Below, piece after piece: positions 57 through 61,989 of a DNA stretch of 64,000 nt (positions are counted from its first letter, which is position 1; the number at the start of each line of letters is the position of its first letter). The translations under genes were made by a program, and so were the position numbers. The stretch is taken from contig JAGVWT010000003.1 of assembly GCA_018304175.1 (NCBI GenBank), forward strand, positions 33,982 through 97,981, in the 5' to 3' direction. The DNA is from Candidatus Pacearchaeota archaeon. GTDB taxonomy: Archaea > Nanobdellota > Nanobdellia > Pacearchaeales > GW2011-AR1. The notes beneath the pieces are model-generated. The model saw only the letters and a list, made by a program, of their open reading frames with translations. It searched no databases and was not told the DNA's origin.

Positions 57-135
57 TTGAAAACAACCTGCTGGTTTTTTTCGATTTTCCTCAAAGCACT
101 GAACAGCGATTTCAAACTGCCTCCGAGGAAATCGC
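57..135 (-). repeat. R1 repeat copy A: 8-bp-stem hairpin (gcgatttc/gaaatcgc) plus conserved tail, ending 1-2 nt before the gatB ATG
   Basis: The reverse complement matches 36637-36707 almost exactly in the stem and the 40-nt tail (tttgaggaaaatcgaaaaaaaccagcaggtt). Confidence 0.7.
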
Positions 136-2304: not shown

Positions 2305-3750
2305 ATGGAAATTGATTACAAAAAAATTGGTTTGAAATGCGGTTTGGAGATTCATCAACAGCTTAATACTAAGAAGCTTTTTTGTGATTGTCCGAGTGTT
2401 TTGAGAAATGAGGTGCATGATTTTTTTGTAAAAAGAAAACTTCATGCTGTTGCTGGAGAAAGCGGTGAGGTAGATGTTGCCGCGAAATATCAAACTTCTC
2501 TTGAGAAACAATTTATTTATGAAGGCTATAAAGATACAACATGCTTAGTTGAACTTGACGAGTCACCTCCGAAGGAAATAAATTCTAAAGCATTAGGAAT
2601 AGTATTACAGATTTCTTTGTTACTCAATGCGAAAATTTTTCCTGTTACACAAATAATGAGAAAAACGGTCGTTGATGGTTCAAACACTTCGGGGTTTCAG
2701 AGAACTGTTTTGATTGCTCACGACGGTTTCATAGAAACTCGGGAAGGAAAAATTGGTATTGATTCTATTTGTCTGGAAGAAGATTCCGCTAGAAAAATAT
2801 CTGAAACTGAGAATGGCTTGACTTACAGATTGGACAGGTTAGGGGTTCCTCTTGTTGAAATAGCAACTTCTGCAGAAATAAAATCACCAACACAGGCGAG
2901 AGAAGTTGCTTTGCATATCGGAAAAATTCTTCGAAGTTGTAATGTTAAAAGAGGAATTGGCACAATAAGGCAAGATGTAAATGTTTCTGTAAAAAAAGGG
3001 AGCAGGGTTGAAATAAAAGGTGTCCAGGATTTGAAGCTTATTGACAAGGCAGTTGAAAAGGAAGCCATAAGACAATCTAGTCTTATCAAACAAAACAAAA
3101 ATGTAATATCAGAAGTCAGAAAAGCCTTGCTTAACGGTGAGACAGAGTTTTTGAGACCAATGCCGGGAAGTGCAAGAATGTATCCTGAGACAGATTTACC
3201 TTTGTTGAAAATATCAAGAGATTTGATAAATGAAGTAAAGAAAACCTTACCTCGCTTGAGAGATGAAACTGAAAGAGAATTACAAGACACCGGATTGAAT
3301 TCAGAGATGATTAGGCTCTTATTTAAACGTAATAAAATAGATGAATTTAAAGAATTGCAGAAAACTCTTGATAACCCAAAACTTATAGCAAATATTCTTT
3401 TAGTTTACCCAAAAGAAATATCTAGTCATAGAAAAATTCCTCAAAAAAGAGTAGAAGAAATTCTAAATATTGATATTACAGAGTCTATTTTGAAAAACTT
3501 AAAGCAAAACAAAATTTCTGAGTCTCATGTGAAGCACGTTCTTGAAGAAATAGCTTCGGGAAAATCTATTGAAGAAGCGATTAAGCTGGAAACAGAAGAT
3601 GAAAATATTCTGGAAGAAAAAATTTTTAAGATAGTAAAAGAAAAACCAGGGCTTTCACATCACGCGTATATGGGAATTATTATGAAAGAGCTTAAAGGCA
3701 AGGTTTCAGGCAAAGAGGCAATGGAAATTATTAAAAAGTATGTTCAATAA
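2305..3750 (+). CDS. gatE: Glu-tRNA(Gln) amidotransferase subunit E (GatE)
   Basis: N-terminus KIGLKCGLEIHQQLNTKKLFCDC (GatB/E-fold signature); located directly after gatD. Confidence 0.85.
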   Translation: MEIDYKKIGLKCGLEIHQQLNTKKLFCDCPSVLRNEVHDFFVKRKLHAVAGESGEVDVAAKYQTSLEKQFIYEGYKDTTCLVELDESPPKEINSKALGIVLQISLLLNAKIFPVTQIMRKTVVDGSNTSGFQRTVLIAHDGFIETREGKIGIDSICLEEDSARKISETENGLTYRLDRLGVPLVEIATSAEIKSPTQAREVALHIGKILRSCNVKRGIGTIRQDVNVSVKKGSRVEIKGVQDLKLIDKAVEKEAIRQSSLIKQNKNVISEVRKALLNGETEFLRPMPGSARMYPETDLPLLKISRDLINEVKKTLPRLRDETERELQDTGLNSEMIRLLFKRNKIDEFKELQKTLDNPKLIANILLVYPKEISSHRKIPQKRVEEILNIDITESILKNLKQNKISESHVKHVLEEIASGKSIEEAIKLETEDENILEEKIFKIVKEKPGLSHHAYMGIIMKELKGKVSGKEAMEIIKKYVQ

Positions 3751-6784: not shown

Positions 6785-6982
6785 TAATTCTCTCGTCGTT
6801 GCTCAATTACTTTCAATTTCCCCCTCATAAAATTATTAATACCAAAACAAAATTTACATTAACACTATCTCACCCACCATAAAAGCGAACGCAATGGGTG
6901 ATGAGATTTTAAACAGAGATTAATTGTTAGACAAAGCCTTAATCATCAAAAGTCTTTAAAACACTGGAATTTTCTTGCTTTT

Positions 6983-9601: not shown

Positions 9602-9997
9602 TTATTCTTCTACCAATTCATCAAGGCTTTTTGGTTTTCTTTTTATCTCAAGAGTGGAAAATAATAAACTCAATGTTTCTTCCAAAGGAATATTTTTGCC
9701 ATGTATATATGACGAAACCGTCTGTCGTGTCACACCTATCTGTTCTGCAAGCCATGTTTGATTTTTTCCTAGTTTCTTCAAACTATATTTTATTAAGTCG
9801 CTTAACTCTTTATTCGTATGTCTTTGACTTCTTTTTACAGCAAGATGTTCTCGATATTTGCTAAGATTCTTGAAACCTTTTTGTACAGCAAGATGTTCTT
9901 GATATTCGCTACGATTCTTGAAACCTTTTTTTACAGCAAGATGTTCTTGATATTCGCTACGATTCTTGAAACCTTTTTTTACAGCAAGATGTTCCAT
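9602..9997 (-). CDS. XRE-family HTH protein with N-terminal 16-aa tandem repeats (EHLAVKKGFKNRSEYQ x3-4)
   Basis: C-terminal HTH_3 motif LAEQIGVTRQTVSSYIHGKNIP. The N-terminal region is encoded by the 48-bp tandem DNA repeat, and the frame stays open a further 30 codons or so upstream of the annotated Met. Confidence 0.6.
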   Translation of the reverse strand: MEHLAVKKGFKNRSEYQEHLAVKKGFKNRSEYQEHLAVQKGFKNLSKYREHLAVKRSQRHTNKELSDLIKYSLKKLGKNQTWLAEQIGVTRQTVSSYIHGKNIPLEETLSLLFSTLEIKRKPKSLDELVEE

Positions 9998-10028
9998 ATA
10001 TTCGTTTAAATTCTTGAAACCTTTTTGT
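9837..10028. repeat. 48-bp tandem repeat, 4 copies plus a degenerate fifth upstream (coding, in frame)
   Basis: Unit acagcaagatgttcttgatattcgctacgattcttgaaacctttttt. Copies 2 and 3 are identical; copies 1 and 4 are diverged. Confidence 0.9.
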
Positions 10029-10169
10029 ACCTTGTCTTCTGCCTTCTGTAAGACCCCATGCAGAAGTATAAGATATGTTTATAGATTTAGCAATATCAGT
10101 TATACTATCTCCTGTTTCATACATTTCCCATGCTCTTTCTCTCTGTCTGTCTTGTATTTTTCTTTGCAT
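9957..10169 (-). CDS. small HTH DNA-binding protein (resolvase/sigma-r4-like HTH); its C-terminus reads into the tandem repeat in a different frame
   Basis: ETGDSITDIAKSINISYTSAW resembles HTH_7/HTH_23 recognition helices. Overlaps ORF 9602-9997 by 41 nt in another frame. Confidence 0.4.
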   Translation of the reverse strand: MQRKIQDRQRERAWEMYETGDSITDIAKSINISYTSAWGLTEGRRQGTKRFQEFKRIYGTSCCKKRFQES

Positions 10170-10914: not shown

Positions 10915-11175
10915 TTAGGCGGCATAATGGGTTAATGTTGGTCTTTTTTCGTTAAAATAAGTTCTCCGTGTAATTACTTTTCTTGTATCAATTTCTTTCT
11001 TACTTAAACCTTCAAGTAAATTTATTAAGTTTTTTCCATGACCTATTATTTTTCTATTATATATCGCGACCCATTCGTCAGGATATTCTATTCTTAAATT
11101 TTCATAATTTTCATCAAAGTATTCGAAATTATCACTAAACCCCTGTACTATTTTATCAGCTTTTCTAGATTTCAT
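10915..11175 (-). CDS. hypothetical small protein
   Basis: ORF only. Confidence 0.3.
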   Translation of the reverse strand: MKSRKADKIVQGFSDNFEYFDENYENLRIEYPDEWVAIYNRKIIGHGKNLINLLEGLSKKEIDTRKVITRRTYFNEKRPTLTHYAA

Positions 11176-11212: not shown

Positions 11213-12439
11213 TTATTCAAAAGCAATTTCTTCGCCTCCGAGAACTTTTTCACCTTTGTAGAGAACAATTGCCTGCCCATTTGCTATTCCTATTACTGGT
11301 TTGTTAAGTGATACGCGGAATTTTCGTGCTGTTGGTGTTCGAAAAATCTTTACAGGGATTAGTTTTCCTAACTGGCGGATTCTTGCGCGGAGTTTAGAAT
11401 CTTTGAAGTTAGTCCCACCTTCCACAGCCCCGACCATCCACCCTTCTTTTTTATCACTATATACAATCGATTTTATTTTATTATTAACTTTTTTACCAAC
11501 TAACTTTTCAACCTCATCTTTATTTATCCAAAAGGGATTCTTTATGAAAATTTCTTTTCTGCAAAGTAGTTTGTGTCCTTCTGGAGCGGCGATTATTATA
11601 TTTTTTTTAGAATCTTTTTTTGCAACATACCATTTTTTGATACTTCCATTATCACTGTTTTTTAAAATTTTAATCCCATTTTTTTCACCTAATCTCTGAC
11701 CAATTGTATAGTAATAAATTCCGTCGTGTTCTCCAATCACTTTCCCTTCGTGATTAAGGATTTTTCCTGGTTTTGCCTTTATTTTCTTTTGAAGGAATTT
11801 TTTCATGTTGACTTTTCCAACAAAACAAATTCCTACTGTTGATTTCTTGTCAAAATTTGGAAAATTTTCTTTTTTTGCAATTTCTCTGACTTGCTTTTTT
11901 GTATAATCTCCTATTGGGAAAATAAGTTTTTTCAATTCATTCTGCTTTGTTCTATATAAGAAATAACTCTGGTCTTTTGATTCATCTTTAGCTCTGAAGA
12001 GTTCGAATTTACCTTTTTTATCTTTTCTTATTCTTGCGTAATGTCCTGTAACTAAATATTCAGCATTTAGTTTTTTTGCCGTCCTTAGCAAAAGTGGAAA
12101 TTTTATTTTGTAGTTGCAATCAATGTCTGGATTTGGGGTTTTTCCTGAATAGTAATCATGAAACATTTTTTCTATAACTTCCTTTTTGTATTGCTTTTCA
12201 AAATCCAATGTGATTAATGGAATTTTTAGTTTATGTGCTATTTGAATTGCATATTTTCTTTCATCTTTCCAATTACATTCTCCAATCTCATTTTTACTAT
12301 CACTCCAATTTTTCATGAAAACTCCAATTACATCAAACCCTTGTTTTTTCATTAATAATGCGGCGACACTTGAATCGACGCCTCCTGACATTGCGACGAT
12401 AACTTTCGTTTTTTTAATTGGTTTCATTTTCCAAAGCAT
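11213..12439 (-). CDS. mnmA: tRNA-specific 2-thiouridylase (MnmA-like PP-loop ATPase)
   Basis: PP-loop SGGVDSSV; about 400 aa; the C-terminal barrel region is conserved. Confidence 0.75.
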   Translation of the reverse strand: MLWKMKPIKKTKVIVAMSGGVDSSVAALLMKKQGFDVIGVFMKNWSDSKNEIGECNWKDERKYAIQIAHKLKIPLITLDFEKQYKKEVIEKMFHDYYSGKTPNPDIDCNYKIKFPLLLRTAKKLNAEYLVTGHYARIRKDKKGKFELFRAKDESKDQSYFLYRTKQNELKKLIFPIGDYTKKQVREIAKKENFPNFDKKSTVGICFVGKVNMKKFLQKKIKAKPGKILNHEGKVIGEHDGIYYYTIGQRLGEKNGIKILKNSDNGSIKKWYVAKKDSKKNIIIAAPEGHKLLCRKEIFIKNPFWINKDEVEKLVGKKVNNKIKSIVYSDKKEGWMVGAVEGGTNFKDSKLRARIRQLGKLIPVKIFRTPTARKFRVSLNKPVIGIANGQAIVLYKGEKVLGGEEIAFE

Positions 12440-13897: not shown

Positions 13898-13937
13898 CTA
13901 AAAACCTTTAAATACGTTTTTCTTTTTCTCAAATCAT

Positions 13938-14030
13938 GTCCCGGTAGCTCAGCAGGTAGAGCACATGACTGTTAGAATTTTGAAAATTGCAGCGATCATG
14001 GGGTCGTAGGTTCGAGTCCTACCCGGGACG
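13938..14030 (+). tRNA. tRNA-Asn (anticodon GTT) with a 20-nt intron (13975-13994) at the canonical 37/38 position
   Basis: Manual fold: acceptor GTCCCGG/CCGGGAC, D-arm GCTC-AGCAGGTA-GAGC, anticodon stem CATGA/TCATG, loop CTGTTA|intron|A, T-arm GTAGG-TTCGAGT-CCTAC, discriminator G. No CCA is encoded. Confidence 0.7.
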
Positions 14031-14032
14031 TT

Positions 14033-26058: not shown

Positions 26059-26090
26059 ACAATTTTATAAATGGATTTGGTTTTGATTTT

Positions 26091-26186
26091 AAGCGAGCCT
26101 GTAGCTCATGAGGGGCATATCCCCTTACAATAACCCCTATCGTTAAAACCGATTGGTCGCTACAGTCTTGAACAGAAAAATGAAGC
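26091..26186 (+). repeat. insert-like segment bounded by 18-bp direct repeats of tRNA-Ile positions -4..+14 (first repeat copy plus about 75-bp insert)
   Basis: aagcgagcctgtagctca occurs at 26091-26108 and again at 26184-26201, where it is the real tRNA 5' end. The insert contains hairpins (ggggcatatcccc) and a ggtcgctacag motif. Confidence 0.6.
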
Positions 26187-26261
26187 GAGCCTGTAGCTCA
26201 GCCCGGTTAGAGCACTGCTCTGATAAGGCAGGGGTCCGAGGTTCAAATCCTCGCAGGCTCA
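26187..26261 (+). tRNA. tRNA-Ile (anticodon GAT)
   Basis: Manual fold: acceptor GAGCCTG/CAGGCTC, D-arm GCTC-(10 nt)-GAGC, anticodon stem CTGCT/GGCAG, loop CTGATAA, T-arm CGAGG-TTCAAAT-CCTCG, discriminator A. Confidence 0.8.
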
Positions 26262-36596: not shown

Positions 36597-36636
36597 AAAT
36601 AGAATTAAATAAAGCTGGTTATTTTGAGATAGGTCT

Positions 36637-36707
36637 GCGATTTCATTTTGGGCAATTAGAAATCGCCTTTCAGTGTTTTGAGGAAAATCGAAAAAAACCA
36701 GCAGGTT
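36637..36707 (+). repeat. R1 repeat copy B (hairpin gcgatttc-N15-gaaatcgc plus conserved tail), ending 6 nt before the GT2 ATG
   Basis: Nearly identical to the reverse complement of 57-135. The tail tttgaggaaaatcgaaaaaaaccagcaggtt is followed by a T7 run and the ATG at 36714. Confidence 0.7.
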
Positions 36708-36713
36708 TTTTTC

Positions 36714-37943
36714 ATGCCTGAAGCACTAACTGTTATTTATCTTGTGTATATGTTTTTGGCCCTTTATTTTTTGATGCTTTTCACAGTTCTTTTTGCCCAA
36801 AACAGAAAAGAGATTTTTTCTTTCCCAAAAGCGAAAAATAAATATTCTGTTTCTGTTTTGATTCCTGCATTCAACGAAGAAGACAGCATAGAAGGAACTG
36901 TTAAAAGTGTTTTGAATTCTGATTATAAATATATTGGGGAAGTTATAGTCATTAATGATGGTTCTACTGATAACACCTTGAAGATTGTCCGAGAATTAGA
37001 AAAAAAATATTCAAAAGTGAAAGTTCTAGATAAAGTAAATGAAGGAAATAAAGGAGCAGCCTTAAATTATGCAATTCCTTACGTAAAAGGAGATTTGATT
37101 GCTGTTGTCGATGCTGATTCTTATCCTGACAAAAATGCCTTAAGTACAATGACTGGATATTTTGATGATAAAGATGTTGGTGTTGTGACAACGAGTATTC
37201 TTGTAAGAGACAGAAATAACTTTCTCAGAAAAATGCAAGCAATTGAATACAAAGTTATTGCGTTCACAAGAAAGCTTCTTGATTTTGTAGATTCAATTTA
37301 TGTAACGCCTGGACCTCTGGCTCTTTACAACAAAAAGATTCTGAAAAAAATTGGGGGGTTTGACACTAAAAATTTGACAGAAGACATTGAGGCGACTTGG
37401 CATATGCTTCACGACGGATACAAAGTAAGAATGTCTTTTATTTCAAAGTCTACCACTGTTGCTCCGAATACTATAAAGAAATGGATAAAACAAAGAATTC
37501 GCTGGACTATTGGAGGAATTCAATGTATAATAAAATACAAAAACGTTTTGTTCAGGAAAGGAATGCTTGGTTATTTTATAATCCCTTTTTTTGCATTTTC
37601 ACTTGTCCTTGGAGTTTTTGGTTTGGGAATTTTCTTTTATAGAATTCTTAGGGGATTTTTGTCTTACTACCTGACCACAAACTACTCACTCGCTTCACAG
37701 ACAGCAATTATTGTCTTACAAGATATAAATCTAAATCCATCAATACTTAACTTCTTGGGAATAATCTTATTTTTGTTAGGGGTTGGTTTCACTTACTTTT
37801 CAATTTCCTTTATAAACAGCCATATAAAGGAAAAGGAAAACTTTTTTAGTGTTGTTTTTTATCTTCTAGTATATATTTTGCTAACACCTTTGGTGCTTAT
37901 AGTGGCAGTATACAAACTTTCGAGGAAAAAATATTCATGGTAA
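36714..37943 (+). CDS. family-2 processive beta-glycosyltransferase (PgaC/IcaA/cellulose-synthase-like)
   Basis: VLIPAFNEE, DGSTD, DADS and QRIRW (QxxRW) motifs with C-terminal multi-TM; the N-terminal TM starts at ATG 36714. Confidence 0.75.
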   Translation: MPEALTVIYLVYMFLALYFLMLFTVLFAQNRKEIFSFPKAKNKYSVSVLIPAFNEEDSIEGTVKSVLNSDYKYIGEVIVINDGSTDNTLKIVRELEKKYSKVKVLDKVNEGNKGAALNYAIPYVKGDLIAVVDADSYPDKNALSTMTGYFDDKDVGVVTTSILVRDRNNFLRKMQAIEYKVIAFTRKLLDFVDSIYVTPGPLALYNKKILKKIGGFDTKNLTEDIEATWHMLHDGYKVRMSFISKSTTVAPNTIKKWIKQRIRWTIGGIQCIIKYKNVLFRKGMLGYFIIPFFAFSLVLGVFGLGIFFYRILRGFLSYYLTTNYSLASQTAIIVLQDINLNPSILNFLGIILFLLGVGFTYFSISFINSHIKEKENFFSVVFYLLVYILLTPLVLIVAVYKLSRKKYSW

Positions 37944-47492: not shown

Positions 47493-47801
47493 ATTTAGTT
47501 CTTTAAGTATAGAAGTTGATTGCCTCGCTCCAAAGTCGCTCGGTTATTGATATAAATTGTTAATACAAAAAACAAACTTTTTCGTTAAAATTTCACATCA
47601 AACTTTCGCGATAGCGAACAATTAAAGTGAGCAACTTGTCGTGAACAGGTATTTTCATTTTCTAAAAATGGCCCCGATTACTCGCGACCCCGCTCGGATT
47701 TTTTATTTTTCGTTTCACGATTAATTTCCGCGAAATCGCTCGTGATTTGATACTGAAGTTCAAATCAACATTTGTAAATGCTGTTTAACAACAGCATGAA
47801 A

Positions 47802-47924
47802 TGGCCCCGATGGGATTTGAACCCACGACACCTGGATCTCTCCAACATTGTTTTTTTCGAACTTCCACGAATTAAAATTCGCGTTGTAAGAGTCCAGTGC
47901 TCTACCAGGCTGAGCTACGGAGCC
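47802..47924 (-). tRNA. tRNA-Lys (anticodon CTT) with a 49-nt intron (47838-47886) in the anticodon loop
   Basis: Manual fold of the reverse complement: acceptor GGCTCCG/CGGGGCC (one GU), D-arm GCTC-AGCCTGGTA-GAGC, anticodon stem CTGGA/TCCAG enclosing CTCTTA|49 nt|A, T-arm GTGGG-TTCAAAT-CCCAT, discriminator A. Confidence 0.6.
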
Positions 47925-48047
47925 TTTTCTGTTTTTGGCGATGTAGCGACTTGCGATTTCGTCGGAGGCAATTGGAAATCGCCTTTCCTAACGAAAAGGA
48001 AGGTGTGTGAGAGGAAACCTTGGTTTCCTTCATGAGCTACGGAGCCT
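47925..48047 (-). repeat. insert-like segment upstream of tRNA-Lys, bounded by 18-bp direct repeats of tRNA positions -4..+14; contains R1 hairpin copy C (47953-47982)
   Basis: aaaaggctccgtagctca (minus-strand reading) occurs at the real tRNA 5' end and again about 105 bp upstream (plus strand 48030-48047). The interior shares tga-Rgg-hairpin, gtcgctaca and acag(aaaa) with the tRNA-Ile insert. Confidence 0.6.
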
Positions 48048-48088
48048 TTTTCTAATTATATTGGTTAGTTAAACACTTAAATATTTTT

Positions 48089-48352
48089 TTAATTATTTAT
48101 GGTAATTAAATATACCGGCCAGAATGCAATTATTGCAACACCTGTCCAAAAAACATAATAAAGAGCCGCAGCAATTGGGCTGTTATTGTAAGTAGTTGTT
48201 TCGCCTAAAATTGGAAGCAAAACATAATATCCTACATATGAAACAATCCACACAATTGCAATCTGCACTAAAACCCAAAGATGCTGACGCGTTTGAGGAT
48301 TTATTTTTTTTAAGTCGAGAATATTCAAGATATTAAGATTAGGCAAGTCCAT
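48089..48352 (-). CDS. small membrane protein
   Basis: Two TM helices. Confidence 0.35.
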   Translation of the reverse strand: MDLPNLNILNILDLKKINPQTRQHLWVLVQIAIVWIVSYVGYYVLLPILGETTTYNNSPIAAALYYVFWTGVAIIAFWPVYLITINN

Positions 48353-54376: not shown

Positions 54377-54823
54377 TTATAGGTTTTTAAGTTCCTTCAT
54401 TTCTTTTTTGAAGTCGTTGACATCTTGGAAGTTTCTGTAGACAGATGCGAATCTTATGTATGCTACATTGTCGAGTTTTTTTATTTTTTTCATCGCTATT
54501 TCACCTATTGTCGAAGTTTTGACTTCTTTTTTGCCTTTTTTCCTTAATTGTTCTTCTATTTCGTTAACAATTTCTGTTATCTTTTCTTTGTTTACAGGGC
54601 GTTTTTCAAACGCCTTTTCAATGCCTCTCTCGAGTTTTTCTCTGCTGAACTTTTCCCTTGATTTGTCTTTTTTTATGACGTAAAAGTCACTGCTGTCAAT
54701 CCTTTCATACGTTGTGAATCTTTTTCTACACTTCAAACATTCTCTCCTCCTTCTTATTCCCTGAGAAGATTCTCTTTTGTTTGTTACCTTTATGCTTGTG
54801 CATGAACAGTATGGACATTTCAT
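54377..54823 (-). CDS. nrdR: transcriptional repressor NrdR (zinc ribbon plus ATP-cone)
   Basis: MKCPYCS...RRRECLKCRKRFTTYE and an ATP-cone. The likely start is MKCPYC at 54823 (the track's 54844 start adds 7 residues). Confidence 0.85.
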   Translation of the reverse strand: MKCPYCSCTSIKVTNKRESSQGIRRRRECLKCRKRFTTYERIDSSDFYVIKKDKSREKFSREKLERGIEKAFEKRPVNKEKITEIVNEIEEQLRKKGKKEVKTSTIGEIAMKKIKKLDNVAYIRFASVYRNFQDVNDFKKEMKELKNL

Positions 54824-59459: not shown

Positions 59460-59855
59460 ATGAAAACAAAAACAGAAAAGGATTTTGCGAAAACTGTGCT
59501 TGATCTAACAAAAACAAAAGAAGAGAGAATTCAGGCTGCGTTTCATTTGGAGAATGCACTGAATGATGAATCTATAAGAAAACTTGGAAAAGCGCTTTTG
59601 ACAGAACCTTCACCAATTGTGAGGCATGAATTTGCGTTTTCCCTCGGTGAAAATGCTAAACCTAAAATAGCAAGTCCTTACTTAATGAAAGCTGTTGAAG
59701 AAGATGAAAATATTTTCGTGAGACATGAAGCGTTGCTCGCCTTAGCAACATTAAACGATAAGTCAGTAATTCCTTTTATAGAAAAATTTCTTAATTCTCC
59801 TGAAGAAGAAATCAGGGAAAGTGCTGAGATTGCACTTCAGAGGTTGAGAAATTAA
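59460..59855 (+). CDS. HEAT/PBS-lyase-repeat protein
   Basis: Repeated ...VRHEFAFSLGE... and ...VRHEALLALATL... HEAT-like units. The ATG at 59460 directly follows the fic stop. Confidence 0.55.
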   Translation: MKTKTEKDFAKTVLDLTKTKEERIQAAFHLENALNDESIRKLGKALLTEPSPIVRHEFAFSLGENAKPKIASPYLMKAVEEDENIFVRHEALLALATLNDKSVIPFIEKFLNSPEEEIRESAEIALQRLRN

Positions 59856-60168
59856 ATAAATTAGGCAATCGGAATTCCTTGAAATTTTTTTTTAATATTT
59901 CACCTATTGTCGAAGTTTTGACTTCTTTTTTGCCTTTTTTCCTAAATTGTTCTTCTATCGATTTATCTATCTTCTCTCTTACGATATTTCTTCCATATAA
60001 AGTTAATCCCTGAACCAAAGCACCATTGCCATTTCTCCTAATCTCGTTTATCGCTTCGTCCACATAATTATTAATTTCGTTTGCGTTCCAGTTTGGAAAT
60101 CCAGCCAATATATTACTCCTTAAATCATTTTCAGTCCAGTCAAAAGTATATGGTAAATCTCTTCCCAT
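59812..60168 (-). CDS. small chimeric ORF carrying a 62-bp near-identical copy of an nrdR ATP-cone segment; possibly a gene fragment
   Basis: Encodes IEEQFRKKGKKEVKTSTIGEI. DNA 59897-59958 is about 95% identical to 54498-54559 inside nrdR. Confidence 0.4.
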   Translation of the reverse strand: MGRDLPYTFDWTENDLRSNILAGFPNWNANEINNYVDEAINEIRRNGNGALVQGLTLYGRNIVREKIDKSIEEQFRKKGKKEVKTSTIGEILKKNFKEFRLPNLFNFSTSEVQSQHFP

Positions 60169-61605: not shown

Positions 61606-61989
61606 ATGGAAGTAATACTTGACACGAATTTTATCATGACTTGCGTGAAGCAGAAGATTGATTTTTTTAGTGACATAGAAACACTCGGCTTTAAAATTAT
61701 AATTCCAAAACAAGTTCTTAATGAATTAAAACTTGTAATCAGGTCGCGAAAAAAGCATCATTTCAGACAGGATGCTGAGCTGTCTTTAAAAATTATAGAA
61801 AGTGAGAAAGGAAACTGGAAAACTGTTGACTTGAAGAAGTATGGTAAAAACACTGACACTGGAATAAAGAACTTCGCGGAGGTTCACGAAAGAGTCTTGG
61901 TTGCGACAATGGATCAAGAATTGAAAAGAAAAATAAAAAACAACAAAATAGTAATCAGGGGAATGAGAAAACTTGATGTTGTGAAATAA
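61606..61989 (+). CDS. PIN-domain ribonuclease (Fcf1/Nob1-like)
   Basis: N-terminus ILDTNFI and the C-terminal acidic VATMDQELKRKI. Confidence 0.6.
   Translation: MEVILDTNFIMTCVKQKIDFFSDIETLGFKIIIPKQVLNELKLVIRSRKKHHFRQDAELSLKIIESEKGNWKTVDLKKYGKNTDTGIKNFAEVHERVLVATMDQELKRKIKNNKIVIRGMRKLDVVK

Follow-up and report, generated by a model that had tools for sequence, protein, structure and literature searches.

How can a tRNA gene be flanked on both sides by partial copies of itself, and which of the copies is the gene? The question is raised by tRNA-Lys(CUU) in a stretch of 64,000 nt from Candidatus Pacearchaeota archaeon (assembly GCA_018304175.1, contig JAGVWT010000003.1, positions 33,982 to 97,981 of the forward strand; hereafter the window), where a reading made from the letters alone, referred to below as the sequence-only reading, had noticed a duplicated tRNA 5' end around an insert related to one at tRNA-Ile, together with a second duplication at the tRNA 3' end. 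Our results place the 5' insert in a family of structured modules that recurs at the same position of other tRNA genes and also occurs within canonical tRNA introns. We propose, with a probability of roughly 0.55, that it is a mobile or converting module of intron origin lying in a long 5' leader, in which the upstream copy of the tRNA 5' end serves as a sequestered decoy and an RNase P-type cut frees the tRNA. All sequences compared come from metagenome-assembled genomes (MAGs) or metagenomes; contigs and loci outside the window are labelled with L-numbers (L001, L009 and so on) and the two window loci are denoted W-Lys and W-Ile.

The tRNA-Lys locus, on the minus strand, is composed of the following features:

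48051..48090, minus strand: A/T-rich, TATA-like region 5' of copy 1, the presumed tRNA-Lys promoter (direct reading)
48033..48050, minus strand: copy 1, the putative decoy, an exact duplicate of tRNA-Lys -4..+14 that ends after A14 (repeat search)
47929..48032, minus strand: 104-nt 5' insert, an intron-related structured module (covariance model, intron identity, fold)
48032..48008, minus strand: P2 hairpin of the 5' insert, followed by the P3 region
47953-47982, minus strand: R1 hairpin, GCGATTTC-N14-GAAATCGC, within the 5' insert
47949..47937, minus strand: 3' motif UCGCUACAUCGCC of the 5' insert, the 3' strand of P1 (covariation, minimum free energy (MFE) fold)
47936..47929, minus strand: A-rich tail AAAAACAG of the 5' insert
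47911..47928, minus strand: copy 2, -4..+14 of the functional tRNA-Lys (repeat search)
47802..47924, minus strand: tRNA-Lys(CUU) (ARAGORN in intron mode; Rfam tRNA, 56.1 bits)
47886..47838, minus strand: canonical (37/38) 49-nt intron of tRNA-Lys(CUU), its bulge-helix-bulge (BHB) motif readable by eye
47799..47811, minus strand: 3' repeat copy A, the final 10 nt of tRNA-Lys plus ttt
47679..47798, minus strand: 120-nt 3' insert in the trailer (direct reading)
47666..47678, minus strand: 3' repeat copy B, then a T5 run (47668..47664) resembling the original terminator

Its counterpart at tRNA-Ile is read from the plus strand:

26064..26071, plus strand: TATA box TTTATAAA, 23 nt 5' of the +1 of tRNA-Ile copy 1 (direct reading)
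26091..26108, plus strand: tRNA-Ile copy 1, the putative decoy, -4..+14
26109..26182, plus strand: 74-nt insert of the same family, with P2, UUACAAUAA junction, P3/P4, 3' motif UCGCUACAGUCUU and tail
26183..26261, plus strand: tRNA-Ile copy 2 (-4..+14) running into the functional tRNA-Ile(GAU) at 26187-26261 (ARAGORN, Rfam)

The window contains exactly two copies of the 18-mer AAAAGGCTCCGTAGCTCA (48033-48050 and 47911-47928) and two of the 13-mer ATCGGGGCCATTT (47799-47811 and 47666-47678), all on the minus strand; the former did not appear even once in 100 shuffles, and none of 100 gave two matches for the latter. Both duplications described from the letters are therefore real, the upstream 18-bp copy having been placed three positions off (48030-48047) and the downstream 13-bp copy one position off (47667-47679). 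At tRNA-Ile, AAGCGAGCCTGTAGCTCA borders the 74-nt insert at 26091-26108 and 26183-26200. The Lys and Ile 5' repeats are both 18 bp long, span -4..+14 and end after GTAGCTCA, and this break point common to two tRNAs, as the sequence-only reading had it, is the junction seen at ~27 more loci. Likewise present in the Lys insert are the tga-hairpin start, the R1-type hairpin, the gtcgctaca motif and the acag end that it had listed. The intergenic region (47493-48088) is, as had been remarked, unusually long (596 bp) with a GC-richer stretch (peak 47.5%, compared with 32.8% over the whole window). The hairpins in it are not all 'debris', however, as the R1 hairpin belongs to a conserved composite module.

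The arrangement at tRNA-Lys is not an assembly artefact, since the locus is 100% identical, at every overlapping base, in seven contigs of different metagenome assemblies, of which L001 and L002 cover it entirely and L003-L005 terminate inside it. The latter three assemblies break within the repeat region (L003, L004 and L005 at window ~48000, ~47781 and ~47808, respectively), and runs of N, masked or unresolved, sit exactly at the tRNA-Lys flanks in the relatives L073, L074 and L076, which suggests that assemblers struggle with these repeats and that MAGs may under-report them.

The family was defined (model R1) by tRNA nucleotides 1-14, UGA, a P2 hairpin, an ACA-containing junction, P3/P4 and a 3' motif, UC-GCUACnn, complementary to tRNA nucleotides 5-11. 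A covariance model built from 18 sequences, the Lys insert excluded, scores W-Lys at 44.6 bits (E ~1e-10, the E-values being rough), so that the Lys and Ile inserts form one family as the letters had suggested; the 60 bits obtained for the W-Ile insert are those of a member of the training alignment. The 30-nt GCGATTTC...GAAATCGC hairpin is treated by the model as an insertion in the Lys insert.

The conserved 3' motif is the complement of tRNA nucleotides 5-11 and in many loci reaches nucleotides 1-3. At W-Lys, the partners of the motif in the duplicated tRNA 5' segment are G7-C11 (for GCUAC) and G1-G2-C3 (for GCC); the gtcgctaca noted earlier is the complement of that segment, a relation that goes beyond what had been read from the sequence. 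Folded alone, leaders at five loci adopt the same Y-shaped three-way junction (z -2.6 to -4.7; -4.4 for the MFE fold of the W-Lys leader), and the W-Ile leader also folds as a three-way junction. In this fold P1 is formed by nucleotides 1-11 and the 3' motif, UCA is unpaired, P2 extends from UGAGGGG to CCCCUUA, and a short ACA-containing junction leads into P4 (AACC with GGUU), which encloses P3. P1 covaries: at position 6 and its partner the 18 sequences have U-A in nine cases, C-G in five, A-U and G-C in one each and no pair in two, and positions 3 and 5 switch as well. The P1 covariation score was reached in 0 of 500 shuffles, and 86% of cells are paired in the true register compared with ~42-49% in slid registers. 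Consistent with this, in the closely related cores of 'type b' the base after GCUAC tracks the host tRNA, being G for C6 (Lys, Tyr), A for U6 (Met) and C for G6 (Arg), with GC for C6 G5 (Thr, Tyr). In P2 one pair is GC in ten sequences and AU in seven. A second count on 11 'type a' sequences found P1 and P2 well supported and P3/P4 moderately so, and across the family stems covary while loop lengths vary (2-4 nt). P2-P4 were specified by hand because RNAalifold on a MAFFT alignment recovered P1 alone.

Known RNA classes were compared with the module by eye. It is not a C/D box small RNA (sRNA), as CUGA is missing beside the closing stem and AUGAGGG does not qualify as a C box, nor an H/ACA sRNA, as P2 has no pocket and there is no ACA-terminated pocket hairpin. 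A hammerhead was rejected (CUCAUGAG has no G5 and no GAAA follows stem II), as was a K-turn, the 3' strand being UC instead of GA. A search of Rfam at E up to 10 over 47600-48100 found nothing credible overlapping the Lys insert.

Does the arrangement recur? One genome per GTDB species was scanned with the pattern GTAGCTCATGA-N81-111-GTAGCTCAG, giving 32 matches. Nine, all from Nanoarchaeota, Woesearchaeota or Pacearchaeota, have repeats of 10-54 bp and homologous inserts, whereas the other 23 (22 bacterial and the Woesearchaeota match L010) share only the 8-10 bp imposed by the pattern. A metagenome scan, in which only the left junction and first hairpin were constrained, gave ~18 further true loci, its GC-rich matches being an antitoxin gene start and coding sequence; a second copy nevertheless lies within ~160 nt in every true metagenome match. 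In total ~27 further loci were obtained, all from Pacearchaeota, Woesearchaeota or Nanoarchaeota, with inserts of ~60-125 nt, and every duplication stops after A14. The sequence-only reading had argued against chance and had named the absence of further copies as the outcome that would count against it; the nine GTDB and ~18 metagenome loci bear out its argument. The repeat varies in length, from 13 to 21 bp and up to 54 bp, with this one fixed end, its 5' end falling between about -6 and +2, and at three tRNA-Met loci (L009, L018, L029) the promoter is duplicated too. Tandem units are found in L037, L042 and L057 and double cores in L053 and L056. The host tRNAs are of at least eight types, Lys, Ile, Met, Thr, Tyr, Arg and Phe together with genes labelled Ser, SeC or Glu by ARAGORN.

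At loci whose two copies are not identical, it is copy 2 that fits the acceptor 3' strand, copy 1 having drifted: copy 1 of L009 has a C4 x A69 mismatch, copy 1 of L064 makes two G.U pairs in place of the perfect pairing of copy 2, the first copy of L037 has no G1 and that of L061 has U1. At the tRNA-Met loci L009, L018 and L029 a second promoter lies directly 5' of copy 2. Because copy 2 fits the acceptor and, at these Met loci, directly follows a promoter, it is the functional copy, and the tRNA 5' end has to be made by a cut at the +1 of this copy. The canonical TATA-to-+1 spacing precedes copy 1, as it does in insert-free genes and in the empty tRNA-Lys(UUU) of L074/L075; the spacing at tRNA-Ile equals that of the insert-free tRNA-Asn (13907-13914 to 13938). 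At tRNA-Lys the spacing of the presumed promoter is less canonical than at tRNA-Ile, and direct reading found no comparable A/T-rich, TATA-like stretch between copies 1 and 2. Promoters and start sites were assigned by reading the sequence. In many related tRNA genes a TATA 8-mer is followed by 23 nt to +1 (20 nt for tRNA-Met), with T at -1 and G at +1. Such regular spacing suggests that leaders in insert-free genes may be very short or absent, as in Nanoarchaeum.

The insert is the same module as is carried by canonical tRNA introns, which had not been noticed from the letters. Its core is present in canonical 37/38 introns of tRNA-Lys (L016, L022, L051, L053), tRNA-Cys (L072) and tRNA-Gly (L044) and, by eye, of tRNA-Arg (L009), and twice in a tRNA-Phe trailer (L050). 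Over 110 aligned columns, the W-Lys insert with its R1 hairpin shares 78% identity with the tRNA-Gly(GCC) intron of the Pacearchaeota MAG L044. Within one MAG (L016, L026, L029) cores are 94-97% identical across Lys, Tyr and Met loci and an intron, the L029 Met insert matching the L016 Lys intron at 36 of 37 positions and the L016 Lys and L026 Tyr inserts being 94% identical, while the core type differs between genomes for the same tRNA. In contrast, the 3' motif and tail follow the tRNA from one genome to another (three Lys genes have GCTAC[A/G]TCGCC), and W-Ile and the L042 Ile locus are 70% identical over the whole unit. With cores genome-specific and tails tRNA-specific, cores are homogenised or mobile within genomes and flanks are inherited with the locus. 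The -4..-1 bases are identical between copies within genomes and not between genomes (aagc in W-Ile, caat in L042), which points to conversion that is still under way or to tandem copies being gained and lost. Arrays are found at both ends of these tRNA genes (L037, L042, L076).

Sites with little or nothing of the unit are also found. In tRNA-Lys(UUU) of L074/L075 the promoter directly abuts GGCTCC, an empty site. The tRNA-Met of L055 (~11120-11175) has neither decoy nor core and retains only the 3' motif GCTACAGAG, a perfect complement of nucleotides 3-11, just 5' of its promoter and directly after a protein gene; this looks like the relic of a lost unit. All 41 core matches found by nhmmer are on the strand of the adjacent tRNA gene, with L058 at a contig end where no tRNA was called, and the weakest matches of the wider covariance-model search are not all sense-oriented. 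Outside tRNA genes, the rpoH-rpoB spacer holds a module core on the transcribed strand in L076 (4201-4285) and L077 (4003-4087) and not in their relative L073, which is a presence/absence polymorphism. The two alternatives offered by the sequence-only reading, a site-specific process and a conserved leader architecture, both seem to be partly true: the architecture is conserved and structured, and the core behaves as a mobile or converting module.

The R1 hairpin itself defines a family whose members share the conserved loop UGCCUCCGA and have stems that covary (GCGAUUUC/GAAAUCGC in some copies, GGUGGUAUC/GAUACCACC in others). It lies at window 106-135, 36637-36666 and 47953-47982 and, elsewhere, in L016 (~2790-2825 and ~6920-6955), L026 (~3385-3560) and L044 (~11895-11930), its contexts being tRNA introns, the Lys leader, tandem 78-nt units (L026) and positions beside start codons. 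A second element of ~78 nt, TGAAAAYAACCTGCTGGTTTTTTTCGATTTTCCTCAAARCACTGAA plus R1, is found at window 58-135 (plus strand) and 36636-36716 (minus strand), where it abuts the ATG of two unrelated, divergently oriented genes, one GatB-like and running off the window start, the other GT2-like at 36714. Its A-rich hairpin also occurs inside the tRNA-Lys 3' inserts of L075-L077.

On the other side of tRNA-Lys, the 3' repeat and insert mirror the 5' arrangement. The 120-nt insert opens with a CAUG-hairpin-UUACAAAU that resembles the module start and closes with a degenerate T-arm-like GAGCGGGGTCGCGAGTA; neither nhmmer nor the covariance model reaches it, and its kinship to the module is tentative. 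Comparable 3' repeats and inserts are found at tRNA-Lys of the relatives L075-L077, and at L029. In the relatives, AATCCCTCCGGGGCCA is repeated after 82-nt inserts that start with AGGGATT, complementary to the repeat, in tandem in L076; the L029 repeat is 24 bp. Degenerate extra tRNA 3' pieces accompany the 3' repeats in the window and in L029.

These results lead us to propose the following mechanism. A structured module of ~60-120 nt would lie in the order promoter, 14-nt (+0-6 nt) copy of the tRNA 5' end, module, short A-rich tail and complete tRNA. Transcription would start from the original promoter, so that the decoy fragment is made first, and the module 3' end (UC-GCUACnn...) would then pair with decoy nucleotides 1-11, closing the Y-shaped junction (P1, P2, P3/P4) before the real 5' end is transcribed. 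Because P1 would sequester the decoy early, it could not compete for the partners of the acceptor and D-stem. The complete downstream copy would fold as a tRNA, and an RNase P-type cut at its +1 would free a structured leader of ~90-135 nt. At the DNA level, the unit may have arisen by duplicative insertion after nucleotide 14, with cores later moved or converted among leader, intron, trailer and spacer positions within genomes; the equivalent event in mirror image, at the 3' end of the transcription unit, would have given the 13-bp repeat and 120-nt insert.

Several points weigh against this proposal. Nanoarchaeum equitans, which belongs to this lineage, has no RNase P (PMC10100707), and no RNase P component was found in the window by Rfam or among ~60 small open reading frames (ORFs) compared with Pfam (10 also with NCBIfam; ~20 longer ORFs unscanned), a span of 64 kb being uninformative in this respect. 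The thermodynamics of the full pre-tRNA slightly prefer the alternative pairing, with copy 1 in the tRNA body and the motif bound to copy 2; as the two folds are near-equivalent, only kinetics and comparative data favour the decoy. We infer transcription start, read-through, the order of co-transcriptional folding, RNase P-type cleavage and the mechanism of insertion. Support for P3/P4 is weaker than for the other stems, with 56-67% of cells paired. For the -4..-1 bases, which are untranscribed or unconstrained, to be identical in both copies, insertion must have been recent or gene conversion must have acted. The apparent restriction to tRNAs bearing GTAGCTCA is search-biased, because both collection scans required this motif, which biases the host range accordingly. 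Finally, terminal inverted repeats are absent, and conservation at the right end is weak, amounting to an AAACA-like tail. Neither a fixed-length target duplication nor simple attachment-site (att) identity fits well, the former because of the variable repeat length, the missing terminal inverted repeats and the weak right end.

Other explanations were weighed against the same observations. Archaeal integrated elements are typically bordered by partial tRNA duplications, and the loci may be att-type scars of integrase elements that carried a partial tRNA copy, integrated at the 5' and 3' ends of the gene and decayed to ~100 bp, the hairpins being leftovers without a current role. We regard this as unlikely, even though it follows an established archaeal pattern and the window locus has tRNA-derived direct repeats at both borders (18 bp at the 5' side, 13 bp at the 3' side). 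No large element or integrase lies between the repeats at any of the ~27 loci; a large, since decayed element in a related genome had been named by the sequence-only reading as an outcome that would count against it. Viral contigs scanned for the integrated form and an attP-like junction gave 0 matches, and no integrase, transposase, reverse transcriptase or Cas1 was found in ~60 small window ORFs compared with Pfam (~20 longer ORFs unscanned). Because each repeat is the host's own sequence, -4..-1 included, a separate attP would be demanded for every tRNA. Scars would also not be expected to have stems that covary, copies on the transcribed strand, or a module that occurs in introns and an mRNA spacer without repeats. 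Degenerate extra tRNA 3' pieces beside the 3' repeats (window, L029) would fit such scars, as would the tRNA-Met tails with their own promoter, which an element-borne 5' part would need, and there is the precedent of Caldiarchaeum, where the tRNA-Thr 5' fragment was displaced and a 1.8-kb recombinase element gave a new 5' part and an intron (PMC3293823).

No greater chance is given to a base-pair-guided mobile element, whose 3' motif would pair with tRNA nucleotides 5-11 (in introns, with anticodon-loop bases) and fix insertion 3 nt downstream, movement being by splicing endonuclease, ligase and a copying step or by a DNA enzyme; in a variant, the inserts may be a class of D-loop intron that mimics the 5' exon, with tRNA 5' ends made without RNase P.

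Slightly less probable again is that the insert and copy 2 together are a non-canonical D-loop (14/15) intron, with copy 1 as the true, leaderless 5' exon in an RNase P-free, Nanoarchaeum-like system, where the endonuclease would cut after A14 of each copy and RtcB would join A14 to G15. AGCU (nucleotides 9-12) is self-complementary and would give a 4-bp central helix with 3-nt bulges, CA|U and CA|G, exactly at the boundary; it is the sole possible site within -4..+14 and is present in both copies of 23 of 23 units. The flanking helices, however, are contiguous in 0 of 23 units, a pair next to the central helix on the exon side is found in 1 of 23, and on the intron side there is always G.U and then an A x G mismatch. 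P1, for which there is covariation, could not form together with the central helix. In favour of this reading, the module serves as an intron at other genes, copy 1 lies in the tRNA body when the full precursor is folded (MFE), the TATA spacing with T(-1)G(+1) suggests near-leaderless tRNA genes, and DPANN endonucleases bear a loop linked to broad substrate range (PMC5829648); on the other hand, it is copy 1 that has drifted from the acceptor 3' strand (L009, L064, L037, L061) and copy 2 that matches it, the Met loci L009, L018 and L029 have their second promoter directly before copy 2, and the L037 promoter is too distant from the first copy. Deletion of the insert and one repeat copy restores an intact tRNA, which is trivial given the duplication. 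A strict, though not a relaxed, BHB at 14/15 was rejected since its flanking helices fail, and a decayed tandem tRNA copy lacking nucleotides 15-37 was rejected as the same precise junction recurs in intron-less tRNAs.

Improbable, and more so than the readings above, is that the unit is a small-RNA gene which captured a tRNA promoter, its Y-shaped RNA acting in trans, for example as a decoy or regulator for a recogniser of the tRNA 5' or acceptor end, and its link with the tRNA being mainly one of biogenesis. L009, L018 and L029 keep the unit although unit and tRNA each have a promoter, tRNA processing would release the same RNA from introns, leaders and trailers, the structure is conserved across orders, and P1 in Lys loci reproduces the pairs G1-C, G2-C and C3-G, then A. 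Against this, the RNA has no known target or partner, and apart from the ACA/UUACAGUAA junction it shows no evident conserved single-stranded guide; the tRNA-Met of L055 has lost the unit and kept the motif alone; and the unit is absent from tRNA-Lys(UUU) of close relatives and is therefore dispensable. It also has no Rfam match.

Least probable is a DNA-level origin of the P1 'covariation', by templated correction of a quasi-palindrome (strand switching between GTAGC/GCTAC arms) within a tolerated insertion resembling a miniature inverted-repeat transposable element (MITE): strand-specific RNA selection is not evident, because mismatches of the G.U kind (sense RNA) and the C.A/A.C kind (antisense only) are similarly numerous, yet arms of 5-11 bp lying ~70 nt apart would prime strand switching poorly, the hairpin potential of P2 and P3/P4 persists although their sequences change, and the orientation of nhmmer core matches is always sense. 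A test for MITE-type features found no terminal inverted repeats and no fixed-length duplication, but dispersed near-identical copies per genome are present; the sole inverted repeat at these loci is that between target and 3' motif, and it changes with the target. Casposon/Cas1 integration (14-15-bp duplications at tRNA genes) was rejected, as terminal inverted repeats are absent, repeat length varies and no Cas1 was found in the scanned window ORFs.

The remainder of the window is archaeal in its markers: L15e (read from translation), TBP, aIF1A, aIF2-beta, Rpb7 and Rpb11-like. Its thioredoxin has an identical counterpart at NCBI under the name Candidatus Pacearchaeota. ARAGORN (intron-aware) and Rfam give four tRNAs, Asn (20-nt intron), Ile, Lys(CUU) (49-nt intron) and Trp, which are the only Rfam matches at gathering score. 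The tRNA-Asn(GUU), at 13937-14031 with a canonical intron, is called 'tRNA-Stop (tta)' by default (bacterial) ARAGORN; it contains GTAGCTCA, yet is without a 5' unit. A PIN_9 protein (61606-61989) is encoded 44 nt 3' of tRNA-Trp; its best solved relatives are the rRNA-processing nucleases Fcf1/Utp24, and it has no match to a solved RNase P protein. Two further repeats were observed. Four to five tandem 48-nt repeats (93-66% identity) at 9827-10066 lie in or beside an HTH_3 ORF (9602-9997, minus strand), and an 87-nt direct repeat of 86% identity (54473-54559 and 59872-59958, 5.4 kb apart) covers the 5' ends of an NrdR-like gene (54377-54823, minus strand) and an unannotated ORF (59812-60168, minus strand).

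How archaeal tRNA introns are gained, and how tRNA genes come to be split or permuted, is an open question, and intron 'transposition' has been inferred without a known mechanism. The present family provides a tractable case, in which the same genomes have one folded module in introns, leaders and trailers as well as in an mRNA spacer, with filled and empty sites in relatives and a built-in complementary segment that changes with the host tRNA. It also illustrates how a single-copy, essential tRNA gene may tolerate insertion inside its coding start, through duplication and sequestration of the decoy. Standard tools report only the downstream tRNA on these DPANN MAGs and leave the upstream fragment and module unannotated, and the arrangement makes it possible to ask, in testable form, how tRNA 5' ends mature in relatives of Nanoarchaeum, which has no RNase P.

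A literature search found no description of the leader module or decoy arrangement, and there is no Rfam family for it; several known systems are nevertheless similar in part. The att repeats of SSV-type and pNOB8-type elements usually cover the tRNA 3' half, and the element carries an integrase. As in those systems, partial-tRNA direct repeats flank foreign DNA here and the tRNA is intact; unlike them, no integrase is found at the loci or in the scanned window ORFs, and no viral contig matches. Small RNAs are also known to ride on tRNA transcripts, such as the C/D box sRNA in the tRNA-Trp intron and dicistronic tRNA-sRNA units. The module resembles these in being a structured RNA embedded in tRNA precursors, which tRNA processing enzymes would release, and differs in having no C/D or H/ACA boxes. 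The split tRNA genes of N. equitans likewise have a promoter-driven 5' piece followed by non-tRNA sequence whose pairing governs processing; there, the 5' piece is essential and is trans-spliced at a BHB, whereas here the tRNA that follows is complete, and the 5' piece seems to be dispensable and has drifted.

Two systems are closer. The tRNA-Thr(GGU) of Caldiarchaeum subterraneum contains a mobile element of 1.8 kb with a putative recombinase and a duplication of nucleotides 1-27 (Sugahara et al. 2012, PMC3293823). In both cases the 5' fragment and native upstream region are displaced, the insert gives the new 5' part and intron gain is linked; the inserts described here, however, are ~60-125 nt long and gene-free, break always after nucleotide 14 and have a 3' end complementary to the displaced fragment. 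Transposition of tRNA introns in Thermoproteales, by a presumably DNA-level mechanism, is implied by near-identical introns in different tRNA genes and positions within a lineage (Fujishima et al. 2010, via PMC4090602), and we observe near-identical sequences of this kind here. All copies in that system are BHB introns within the mature tRNA, and a duplication of exon sequence is not reported. Unlike these introns, the present module is found in DPANN rather than Crenarchaeota, has a conserved fold, and occurs also in trailers, in an mRNA spacer and in the 5' leader behind a duplicated tRNA fragment.

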